Source of the DNA: a virus
Taxonomy: Duplodnaviria; Heunggongvirae; Uroviricota; Caudoviricetes
Strand: one strand, 5' to 3'
Length of the DNA: 43,633 nucleotides
IMG/VR virus record: IMGVR_UViG_2563366881_000003
The position numbers and the translations under genes were made by a program. Below are positions 7,230 to 38,400 of this stretch, piece after piece. The notes beneath the pieces were generated by a model. It was not told the origin of the DNA and did no database searches. It saw nothing but the letters and a program-made list of their open reading frames with translations. Numbering within the stretch: position 1 is the first letter of the stretch; each line of letters opens with the position of its first letter.

Positions 7230-7453
7230 TTTCGGTAGGCTTCTACGGCTTCACGAAACATCTTTTCATCGCCAATAAAAGTGGCGATAGTGAATTTAGT
7301 CTGGATAGCCATAAGTGTTTTATCCATTTTGGGGAACTCCTGGCTGATTAAGTACGTCGATGAGTCGTTTCCATCCGTCACGTAATTTACGTGTGATTCG
7401 CTCAAGTAAAGATTCGGAAGGGCAGCCAGCAACAGGCCACCCTGCAATGGCAT
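7214..7453 (-). CDS. Small hypothetical protein (79 aa, or 37 aa from internal ATG at 7327)
   Basis: ORF; internal ATG has a GGAG 9 nt upstream. Confidence 0.3.
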   Translation of the reverse strand: MPLQGGLLLAALPNLYLSESHVNYVTDGNDSSTYLISQEFPKMDKTLMAIQTKFTIATFIGDEKMFREAVEAYRKWRSK

Positions 7454-7541
7454 ATTGCATGGTGTGCTCCTTATTCATTTACACTTGAAATTGCTCCGTG
7501 TATTCACTCGTTGGAATGAATACACAGTGCTTATTCGCAGC

Positions 7542-7868
7542 CTACATAATCATTCCGGTTATTATTACCATTTCAATATCACTATCTTTCATAATGATTG
7601 GAGTTGAGTTATCAACTTTACTTTTACTCCATTTTCCTGCATCAGTTTTTACCGTTCCACAATAAGAAAGCCAATCATCATCACAATGTTCTGGATCGCT
7701 AATTCTAACAAGAACACGTGATAGTGCTTTTTCGATACTTTCATCACAATCAGCATTTATGTAATTGCCGTGAGACAATTTCAAATCGTTAACCTCATCT
7801 TCATTGGCATCAAAAATATAGATTTCAGTCGACTCTGGAACATTTTCATAAACCATTAAAATTTTCAT
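7542..7868 (-). CDS. Acidic hypothetical protein, 108 aa
   Basis: ORF with GGGG upstream of ATG; about 24 Asp/Glu against about 11 Lys/Arg. Confidence 0.5.
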   Translation of the reverse strand: MKILMVYENVPESTEIYIFDANEDEVNDLKLSHGNYINADCDESIEKALSRVLVRISDPEHCDDDWLSYCGTVKTDAGKWSKSKVDNSTPIIMKDSDIEMVIITGMIM

Positions 7869-7920: not shown

Positions 7921-8370
7921 TTACTTAACCAATGATGCTGCATATTCGATAAGGTAAAGCTTTGGAGCCAGCCAAATTTTTAACCAAGTCATATTGGTTA
8001 CTGCATCAATAATAAAAATCCCCCACAGAGTCAAAACTCCAACCAATGGCATGATAAGAAGATTAATATCACCTTTGCTATCCCAAACCATTGTCGGCCT
8101 GTATTTGGGATTTCCTTTCTCCCATGAATATCCTTCATCACCGATTTTACCTATCTCAACTCTCTGGCACTGCTTCTTCATAAACCAGAAAACCAGTGGG
8201 ATTGTTAGAATGGCTATTAATGTTTTAATCATACTGTCAACCATATTCCATAGCAGCAACTGATGAACAACATCAGGAATCTGTGCCTGGCTAAATGAAA
8301 CAGCCGCGTCTATTCCATTGCTGGCTTTTTGCAGTAGTTCTACGAGAATCTTGTTTGCTTGTTCTTCCAT
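7921..8370 (-). CDS. Membrane protein with two predicted TM helices, 149 aa
   Basis: Hydrophobic stretches LIAILTIPLVFWF and LLIMPLVGVLTLWGIFII; own terminator; divergent promoter region shared with the SieB-like gene. Confidence 0.55.
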   Translation of the reverse strand: MEEQANKILVELLQKASNGIDAAVSFSQAQIPDVVHQLLLWNMVDSMIKTLIAILTIPLVFWFMKKQCQRVEIGKIGDEGYSWEKGNPKYRPTMVWDSKGDINLLIMPLVGVLTLWGIFIIDAVTNMTWLKIWLAPKLYLIEYAASLVK

Positions 8371-8513
8371 ATATCACCTTAAATAGTGGATTGCGGTTGT
8401 AAAGATTGTGCCTGTCTTTTAACCACATCAGGCTCGGTGGTTCTCGTGTACCCCTACAGCGAGAAATCGGATAAACTCTATTCACCCCTACAGAGAGCAA
8501 AAGAGAAACGCCG

Positions 8514-9095
8514 ATGAACAACTCATGGTGGCAGGAACTAATGCATTTTTTCCTGCAAGGAATGACACTTAAACAGTTGATTCATATGCTAATCATCCTG
8601 ATCATATTGATTATTGTTATGCCGGTAAGCGTAAAAGAATGGATAAACCTGCATAATCCAGAAATCCTTCCTCATTACTGGATGTATTACATCCTGTTGT
8701 TTTGCGTTAGCTATGTGCTTAACGGCGTTGTTAATTCCGCTTATTACGCTGTGACTGAAAGAATTGAGGTATTCGCTGCTCAGAAGCGCAAATCTAAAGA
8801 AGAGAAATACGTGCAAGATTTGTTTGATTCGTTAACTCTTGGAGAAAGAGCGTATTTGGCACTCGCTGTAGTCGCTAATAACCAGCTACAAACGGAAAAG
8901 GGAAGCCCTGAAGCAATCTCATTGCTCGAAAAAGGGCTTCTTATTCGGATACCTTCTGCTACTGGATATCCTGAAATCGACCGTTTTGTTATCCCAGAAC
9001 GCTATAGAAATGAGTGCTACATTAGGTTTGCTGGGAAGAAAGACAGTCTTATGGATGAACTTATCGCTCAGGATAAGCACGGCAAAAACAAGTAA
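8514..9095 (+). CDS. SieB-like superinfection-exclusion membrane protein (candidate)
   Basis: 193 aa, two N-terminal TM helices plus soluble C-terminal domain; size, architecture and early-left location resemble SieB of lambda/P22; transcribed opposite to the leftward operon. Confidence 0.45.
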   Translation: MNNSWWQELMHFFLQGMTLKQLIHMLIILIILIIVMPVSVKEWINLHNPEILPHYWMYYILLFCVSYVLNGVVNSAYYAVTERIEVFAAQKRKSKEEKYVQDLFDSLTLGERAYLALAVVANNQLQTEKGSPEAISLLEKGLLIRIPSATGYPEIDRFVIPERYRNECYIRFAGKKDSLMDELIAQDKHGKNK

Positions 9096-9241
9096 TTAGC
9101 AAATTAATTTATCATCTCGCCGTCAGTTGTTTTGATTTCCGGTAGCCTGCCGCGTAAATGGCTACGTTTGGCAGGCACACAGCACCACCTTCAACTTCCT
9201 TCTAACGCGTTCCTGCAAGCGAAATGGCTCTTGAAACACGT

Positions 9242-9775
9242 TTACTGGCTCCGTCCATGATTTTCATGAAAGCCATATAGTGCATTGGCTTCTTTCCTTG
9301 CTTGTTTGGCATCATCTAAAAGTTTGAATGAGCCTAGGTATTTTCGTTTTCCATCCACAGTTATCGATGCAACATAAAACCCATGCTCTTTTCTTTCTTC
9401 AACACCTGTAACTCCAGTTGATGAAGATGATTTTAAAGGCATGTTTTTCATATTCTCTTTGAAAGAAACGCTTCTTAAATTGGAGATTCTGTTGTCATCC
9501 TTAACGCCGTTTATGTGATCAATCACATCAGGCCAGTAGCCATGCACGTAAAGCCATGCAAGTCTGTGAGACTTAAATTTTTTACCTCCAATATTTATTC
9601 TCAGATAACCCTTGTTGTCAGGTGAGCCAGCCTTTTTACCTGGATACTTCTTGTTCCACGTCAAGGCAGCTCTGTTATCCGCAAACAAATGCTTTGCTCT
9701 CGGCTTCCAATAAAAGTCACCACTCACAGGATTGTAATGAAGAATCTCCCTTACAGACACTTGAGTAAGATCCAC
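9242..9775 (-). CDS. HNH endonuclease with AP2-like DNA-binding domain (paralog 1)
   Basis: Motif HRLAWLYVHG...IDHINGVKDDNRISNLR, C-terminal GV(T/S)... AP2-like segment; paralogous to three other ORFs in the window. Confidence 0.8.
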   Translation of the reverse strand: MDLTQVSVREILHYNPVSGDFYWKPRAKHLFADNRAALTWNKKYPGKKAGSPDNKGYLRINIGGKKFKSHRLAWLYVHGYWPDVIDHINGVKDDNRISNLRSVSFKENMKNMPLKSSSSTGVTGVEERKEHGFYVASITVDGKRKYLGSFKLLDDAKQARKEANALYGFHENHGRSQ

Positions 9776-10017
9776 TTAAACCTCCTAACAAAAACACTTC
9801 AATAACCCTCCGGTTATGGAAATGTTCTTTTGTAGTGAGCAGCATTGCCGTTCATCCTGAACCCGCCGCGCTCCCGACGCATGGTTTAAAGACGCGCCGT
9901 TCGTCTATGGGCTTATGATGTACTTAAAGTTCATTAATGTAAAGTACAAATAGTACATTTTATGGGTATAAAAAGCTCACTACATCATAAGTTAGTGAAC
10001 TTTAAGGAAATTTATTT

Positions 10018-10725
10018 TTATCCGAATCGCTTGTAATCGATTGACTGCCTAATGAGGACTTTGGCTAGAATGTGAAGTTGCTCTTCTTCACCTTCTTCTA
10101 TGTACCATCGATCATAAGCGGCATTGTCAGAGATGACGGCAAGCCTGTTCTTTTGCATTTGCAGGCGCTTAACGTGCATTGTTTTCCCGTATACAAACAC
10201 ATAAATGCCATCGCCATCAAAATAGGTTATGGATACATCAACAAAGATCTCATCTCCCGGATTGATGGTTCCCTCCATGCTGTCACCGCGAACCGTGATG
10301 ACTTTTACGCTTTCCTGTGGCCTTCCATTAAATAAAATTCTTGCCTGCTCGGGCGTATATTCAATTGCTCTTATCTTTTCTATAAATTCATTGGAAACCA
10401 TGGTTCCTGGCCCGGCGCTCGCCTGAACATCCAATACATCAACACGATAAGAATCATTTGATCTTGATAGATGATTTACCGTGATACCGTCATAATCAGC
10501 ATAGCCATGCAGATATGCAGCAGTAGTTCCCAGCACCGAAGCCAGAGATTCCATCTTGTCTTTTCTTGGTATTGACTCCCCGTTGAACCATTTACTAATG
10601 GCTTTTGGTGTGACCTTAAGCCTGACAGCTAAATCAGCCTGCCTACCATGCAAAGGTAATCCCGCTTTATCACAGGCCAGCGCAAGCCTCTGCGAGAAAG
10701 TTTCACGCTCTTTCTGTTGAACCAT
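10018..10725 (-). CDS. cI: CI-type prophage repressor (HTH plus S24 LexA-like peptidase domain)
   Basis: C-terminal GDSMEGTINPGDEIFVD ... HVKRL (Ser/Lys dyad); start at MVQQKE (ATG 10725) lies inside an operator palindrome with no SD, consistent with a leaderless transcript. Confidence 0.8.
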   Translation of the reverse strand: MVQQKERETFSQRLALACDKAGLPLHGRQADLAVRLKVTPKAISKWFNGESIPRKDKMESLASVLGTTAAYLHGYADYDGITVNHLSRSNDSYRVDVLDVQASAGPGTMVSNEFIEKIRAIEYTPEQARILFNGRPQESVKVITVRGDSMEGTINPGDEIFVDVSITYFDGDGIYVFVYGKTMHVKRLQMQKNRLAVISDNAAYDRWYIEEGEEEQLHILAKVLIRQSIDYKRFG

Positions 10726-38323: not shown

Positions 38324-38324
38324 A

Positions 38325-38400
38325 GTTGAAGCCCCAACTGCGGGAACAGTCAGGGCTTCTGTTGTCAGTAAATCCGTGGAGAAAAACCAACATGAATAGT
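38325..38400 (-). ncRNA. sar-like antisense RNA covering the ant ribosome-binding region (candidate)
   Basis: Arc-ant intercistronic hairpin GAAGCCC...GGGCTTC at 38330-38361; P22 has sar here. Confidence 0.35.

Follow-up and report, generated by a model that had tools for sequence, protein, structure and literature searches.

The open reading frame (ORF) at positions 8514-9095 (+) of the window, the whole 43,633-nucleotide stretch of viral DNA analysed here, is sieB and, judged by its sequence, encodes a full-length orthologue of the superinfection exclusion protein SieB of Salmonella phage P22 (193 amino acids). We consider the gene to be the sieB of a P22-like Escherichia coli prophage with an HK022 immunity region, with a P22-type function that might be exerted by the membrane mechanism proposed below, and we give this explanation as a whole a probability of about 0.9. 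The ORF is an already known and routinely annotated gene, a textbook accessory gene and not a discovery. All the defining features of P22-type SieB that can be checked from sequence are present.

The assignment is based on the ORF itself, two profile matches, and the identity to the P22 and coliphage proteins. Residues 24-164 matched the Pfam model SieB (PF14163) with 82.2 bits against a gathering score of 26, and PHROG 1301, 'superinfection exclusion', covered the entire protein (residues 1-193 of 193) with an E-value of 6.1e-122. In a tblastn search against 50,697 phage records, 91 records were matched, 88 of them with at least 80% query coverage. The protein shares 82.7% identity over 99% coverage with the sieB of every P22 record matched, where the feature is annotated as sieB, and 96-98% identity with the annotated SieB proteins of HK140, VT1-Sakai, and other lambda-like coliphages. 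The similarity to SieB, which the first-pass annotation had proposed from size, topology, and location but could not confirm, is therefore strong. The first-pass annotation had also likened the protein to 'SieB of lambda/P22', which holds for P22 but not for lambda as close kin. Close kinship to the reference lambda SieB is ruled out at 23% identity; the lambda protein is a remote homologue on a remote branch of the family, and the label should accordingly read 'SieB of P22'. The profile comparison that had been suggested for the SieB and Abi families was positive for the SieB profile, whereas the defence models of PADLOC-DB v2 gave no significant match and no SieB-named model was matched among them; two weak PDC-M02A matches (E = 0.04 and 0.18) lay over the hydrophobic N-terminus. 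NCBIfam returned no SieB match, and its 13.8-bit match to an ABC permease/CPBP model is meaningless.

The alignment with the SieB proteins of P22, HK140, and 2G7a contains no gaps within the protein, P22 SieB being one residue shorter at the C-terminus. Only two differences from P22 SieB are found in residues 1-75, and the DNA identity to P22 amounts to 92-100% over the 5′ 240 nt and to 67-90% in the C-terminal half. The C-terminal half is the part in which this E. coli variant of SieB has diverged from P22. A single difference, Y78H, separates the protein from WP_001066172.1, 'super-infection exclusion protein B' of E. coli GF4, and the same name is the one given by PGAP among the matches listed in E. 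coli genomes. Similar DNA occurs in 1,328 of the 5,426 complete E. coli genomes, and a gene carried by about a quarter of them is an ordinary one. In a large protein collection, 118 homologues were found at E ≤ 1e-3, in the genera Escherichia, Salmonella, Citrobacter, Leclercia, Obesumbacterium, Yersinia, and Arsenophonus. Given these protein homologues and the many E. coli genomes with similar DNA, the ORF is a conserved gene and not a product of chance.

The ORF listing gives a single 193-residue frame with an ATG start, which is intact, with neither a frameshift nor an internal stop codon. Because an in-frame stop codon lies 13 codons upstream, position 8514 is the first possible start codon. 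The orientation opposite to the flanking early genes, to which the first-pass annotation had drawn attention, is real, since the (-) strand carries all of the large neighbouring ORFs (7542-7868, 7921-8370, 9242-9775, and 10018-10725, the last being the repressor). A 19-residue Kyte-Doolittle scan revealed two hydrophobic segments, a very strong one at about residues 22-40 (peak 3.03) and another at about residues 56-79 (peak about 1.5), and residues 80-193 contain 19 K/R and 18 D/E residues (32% charged, net charge +1). The earlier description as a 193-residue protein with two N-terminal transmembrane helices and a charged C-terminal domain was borne out by these profiles. Residues 80-193 open with a basic cluster, KRKSK, after the second hydrophobic helix, which suggests a cytoplasmic C-terminus; two membrane spans would place the N-terminus on the same side. 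SieB is predicted to be located in the membrane, with two N-terminal helices followed by a cytoplasmic C-terminal domain.

The AlphaFold2 model contains helices at residues 19-35 and 56-105, the start of the latter corresponding to the second hydrophobic segment, and its N-terminal 60 residues are of low confidence (pLDDT 55-66). A winged-helix fold is predicted for the C-terminal domain. Foldseek matches of the winged-helix region were without significant E-values, and the significant Foldseek matches among viral models were P22 SieB and one related fragment only. Among the sequences of the PDB, the family profile retrieved nothing relevant, the best match being RAP80 (E = 0.28). In the alignment of the homologues, the membrane hairpin and the periplasmic loop (K41 E42 W43 N48 E50 W56-Y59) are invariant in the family, and the winged-helix region is its most variable part.

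The gene probably has its own promoter, as the first-pass annotation had implied from the orientation. A 31-nt string, TGTACCCCTACAGCGAGAAATCGGATAAACT, which is annotated as 'promoter; sieB RNA start site' in the P22virB-3 record (OQ031658), is found unchanged at 8447-8477 (+) of the window, and is also identical in lambda, HK140, and 2G7a. A generic sigma-70 scan did not call TGTACCCCTACAGCGAGAAATCGGATAAACT, and PsieB is hence a weak match to the consensus. The surrounding block at about 8400-8480 is identical or nearly so in P22, HK140, 2G7a, and lambda. By inspection of the sequence, we noticed a direct repeat, ACCCCTACAG, of which two exact 10-nt copies (8450-8459 and 8484-8493, +) are placed 34 nt apart, one inside the sieB promoter and the other in the 5′ leader. 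The Yersinia homologue and two metagenomic homologues, with 39-50% protein identity, retain both copies with no more than one change, and conservation at the nucleotide level in these loci extends over the promoter, the ACCCCTACAG duplicate, and codons 1-26.

The ORF seems to hold a second in-frame product, Esc, which was absent from the first-pass annotation, as was the antisense-RNA control known from P22. In P22, a 105-nt antisense RNA, sas, pairs with the sieB mRNA and switches its translation from SieB to Esc (PMC12197685; 10.1101/787010; PMC3224144), and Esc, encoded in-frame within sieB, inhibits SieB (PMC3224144). The Esc coding sequence in the P22virB-3 record ('protection of P22 against SieB self-exclusion') begins 72 nt, or 24 codons, inside sieB. 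The window has an ATG at codon 25 (8586), the same codon as the Esc start of P22, and the internal reading frame from Met25 (8586-9095, +) would be the counterpart of P22 Esc. Among 28 homologues, the conservation of Met25 exceeds 90%; no evident Shine-Dalgarno sequence was found upstream of its codon.

Codons 1-26 (8514-8591) are remarkable for their frozen synonymous sites. When the window, P22, Yersinia, and the two metagenomic loci were compared codon by codon, identical codons were used at 86% of the conserved degenerate residues in codons 1-26 versus 40% in codons 27-75 (Fisher p = 3e-21, for pairs that are not independent). The synonymous freeze points to selection acting on the RNA in addition to the protein, and the conservation of synonymous sites stops sharply at the Esc start. 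The frozen codons would fit the presumed target of the sas antisense RNA and the presumed SieB/Esc translational switch. No Rfam family covers the sieB leader or sas, the end points of sas are annotated in none of the phage records examined, and neither the sense leader nor the antisense strand was predicted by minimum free energy to fold better than shuffled sequences (z -1.0 to -1.3), for which reason we claim neither a structure nor end points of sas. With the N gene truncated and a gene for an HNH endonuclease placed between pL and sieB, the antisense transcription of sieB might not be the same as in P22.

The sieB gene is one of four systems expressed from the P22 prophage. When P22-like phages superinfect, SieB brings cellular macromolecular synthesis to a halt in the middle of their lytic cycle, whereas P22 itself is spared (PMC10883804). 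The arrest extends to the synthesis of RNA, DNA, and protein, and lambda is also among the phages affected (PMC7380047). The SieA and SieB systems are called 'less well-understood' (PMC10883804), and the literature that we found gives no molecular mechanism for SieB. We propose that the lysogen would express SieB from its own promoter, as described in the P22 literature, and that superinfection by a heteroimmune phage of the P22-like or lambdoid kind would abort, with the synthesis of RNA, DNA, and protein arrested in mid-cycle. SieB might be an inner-membrane two-helix hairpin with both the N- and C-termini in the cytoplasm. Its cytoplasmic winged-helix domain could sense a phage product in mid-infection, upon which the conserved hairpin might collapse the energisation of the membrane. 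Such de-energisation would explain why all macromolecular synthesis stops at the same time. The resident phage type would escape when sas makes the sieB mRNA yield Esc, the N-terminally truncated form, in place of SieB, and SieB would be inhibited by Esc. Esc, which lacks residues 1-24 and with them an amphipathic helix and the beginning of the first membrane helix, might co-assemble with SieB and act as a dominant negative, and its block on SieB could be likened to an antiholin blocking a holin.

A further proposal, which we put forward tentatively and which may well fail in one part or another, joins these elements together. The variable winged helix might recognise a product of the invader and set the specificity, the near-invariant hairpin with its KEW...NPE...WMYY loop might be the part that kills, and an RNA-level control element of about 150 nt, comprising the promoter, the ACCCCTACAG duplicate, and codons 1-26, might be conserved across genera of Enterobacterales. 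We found no description of a winged-helix sensor, a killing hairpin, or an RNA element of about 150 nt in the SieB literature.

The main rival for the mechanism is an action of SieB on nucleic acid via the winged helix. SieB would then be a membrane-tethered binder that sequesters or blocks the superinfecting genome or its transcripts, and the hairpin would be only an anchor. The pattern of conservation argues against this role, as the winged helix is the most variable part of the protein while the hairpin and the periplasmic loop are invariant, pointing to the membrane part as the effector. The arrest of host as well as phage synthesis (PMC10883804) would also be hard to explain by binding to phage DNA. 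Moreover, winged helices mediate protein contacts, too, and the Foldseek E-values for the winged helix are not significant in the first place. We therefore regard an action on nucleic acid as unlikely, and favour the membrane hairpin as the effector of SieB.

The window as a whole is a P22-like prophage or phage. It contains an integrase (1419-2489), Sak4-type and SSB recombination genes, kil, the cIII thermometer RNA, P22-type morphogenesis genes, an immI region with the sar RNA and Arc-like and Ant genes, and a tailspike. Two RNA elements in the window were detected by Rfam above the gathering score, namely the lambda cIII thermoregulator element at 7415-7473 (-) with 88 bits and the sar antisense RNA of the P22 immI region at 38324-38391 (-) with 92 bits, the latter being flanked by the Arc-like repressor and Ant genes. 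A transposase-like ORF (PHROG 506; 42503-43633, +) reaches the right end of the window, and a 427-residue ORF (PHROG 12036, of unknown function; 1-1284, -) beside the integrase reaches the left end; these two ORFs may mark the borders of the prophage or be cargo.

The immunity region is of the HK022 type, with cI, cro, and cII about 99% identical. The repressor (S24/HTH; 10018-10725, -) is accompanied by an HK022-type pL promoter at about 9915-9943 (-) and a putL antiterminator RNA at about 9837-9899 (-), both located by their identity to the O276/HK022 annotation. No Rfam family matched the put RNA. The identity to O276/HK022 runs to about position 9835 and breaks just after putL, where it gives way to an HNH endonuclease gene. 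The phage probably uses RNA-mediated, N-independent antitermination. In place of nun (HK022) or N/24 (lambda, P22), the first gene of the pL operon encodes an HNH endonuclease of 177 residues (9242-9775, -; Pfam HNH_3, PHROG 99). This endonuclease module is shared with Salmonella phage UPF_BP1, and the gene could be a homing-endonuclease insertion. Only a remnant of the N antiterminator gene is left, convergent with sieB at 9112-9180 (-). It consists of the last 22 codons and the stop codon, encoding VCLPNVAIYAAGYRKSKQLTAR, the C-terminus of the N protein of HK140/2G7a, and the frame is interrupted by a stop 8 codons ahead of this matching part. The DNA homology to HK140/2G7a reaches as far as near 9181, where a mosaic recombination joint is recognisable, about 85 nt beyond the end of sieB.

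The early-left position of sieB, antisense to the pL operon and convergent with an N-type gene, is an arrangement found also in P22, lambda, and HK140. In Yersinia and the two metagenomic loci, sieB and an N-like gene likewise face each other, a few genes to the left of an S24 repressor. The gene of the window is in its canonical place, but, as far as the alignments tell, as a mosaic cassette (about 8400-9180) with exchanged neighbours. Directly upstream of sieB and divergent from it, where P22 and HK140 have ral, we observed an ORF of 149 residues (7921-8370, -) with hydrophobic segments, a match to PHROG 3054 (unknown function), and no Pfam match. It is possibly a further accessory or membrane gene.

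With such neighbours, sieB might be intact but silent or inert cargo in a phage in which N is truncated, an HNH endonuclease gene is inserted, and put-type antitermination of HK022 has replaced N. The mosaic junction so close downstream, the 22 codons left of N, and the joining of the pL-putL module to the HNH endonuclease gene are what such a history would leave behind. The rearrangements, however, are all outside the sieB transcription unit, whose promoter, leader, and codons 1-26 are identical or nearly so to those of the functional P22 system, and the coding sequence is without frameshift or stop and just one residue away from a widespread E. coli allele. Inert cargo is accordingly very improbable compared with a sieB of P22-type function. 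An unrelated small membrane protein of a holin-like, lysis-timing kind, which would share with SieB its size and topology only and to which the two-helix membrane topology and a dual-start architecture as in lambda S105/S107 would be equally suited, is effectively refuted by the unambiguous SieB homology along the whole length and by the early-left location outside the lysis cassette, and the significant structural matches among viral models, which are confined to P22 SieB and its related fragment, speak against it as well.

With sieB, the prophage has a standard anti-phage module, and how susceptible its host strain is to phages may depend in part on it. The remaining value of the analysis is general to SieB, which 30 years after its genetics is still 'less well understood' (PMC10883804). 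Work on the mechanism of SieB could start from the predicted winged helix, the invariant hairpin in the membrane, and the strong constraint on the 5′ RNA region. The minor new points are family-wide rather than specific to the window: the predicted winged-helix C-terminal domain, the invariant inter-helix loop, the duplicated leader motif, and the sharp boundary of synonymous conservation at the Esc start.

Among the known systems, the closest are the coliphage SieB proteins (HK140, VT1-Sakai, the 2G7a/ev-series, and WP_001066172.1), which have 96-98% identity and the flanking DNA of about 8400-9180 in common with the window but differ in a few substitutions (Y78, L117, V120, Q126) and in the neighbouring modules. 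The SieB/Esc/sas system of Salmonella phage P22 was reportedly described by Ranade and Poteete in 1993 (J Bacteriol 175:4712; Genes Dev 7:1498); our statements on P22 genetics rest on secondary sources and the GenBank annotation of P22. The window shares with P22 the promoter string, the Esc start codon, and the orientation antisense to pL and convergent with an N-type gene. In contrast, the window protein is one residue longer and diverged in its C-terminal half, the host is E. coli, and the window has a 22-codon antiterminator remnant and an HK022-type immunity region with putL.

Lambda SieB (NC_001416, 34482-35036) belongs to the same Pfam family (103 bits) and has the same position and orientation between ral and N. 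However, it shares 23% identity in the profile alignment (hhalign probability 96.7%, E = 4e-10) and falls into PHROG 6399 instead of PHROG 1301. The comparison of positions 1411-1483 of the NC_001416 segment with positions 8408-8477 of the window demonstrates that the promoter block is identical down to GGATAAACT, after which the homology breaks abruptly where the lambda allele begins. The identical promoter block followed by abrupt divergence of the coding sequence suggests that one promoter drives two very different alleles of the SieB family, separated by a sharp mosaic boundary.

Another exclusion system of lambda, RexAB, is likewise expressed by the prophage, associated with the membrane, and encoded beside the immunity region; it aborts the superinfecting phage and shuts down cellular synthesis. 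RexAB is nevertheless an unrelated two-protein system, for which no similarity to the SieB of the window was found. The lambda S105/S107 proteins, a holin-antiholin pair, are membrane proteins made from dual starts. As with SieB and Esc, one gene gives two in-frame products, one of which inhibits the other, and the proteins are small and reside in the inner membrane; S′ of lambda is described as inhibiting S (PMC3224144). The two pairs have no sequence similarity. Unlike in S105/S107, the starts of SieB and Esc are 24 codons apart, the choice between them is set by an antisense RNA, and SieB has a cytoplasmic domain of roughly 110 residues. The relation of SieB/Esc to holin and antiholin might best be seen as an analogy of the working principle and not as membership in the same class.
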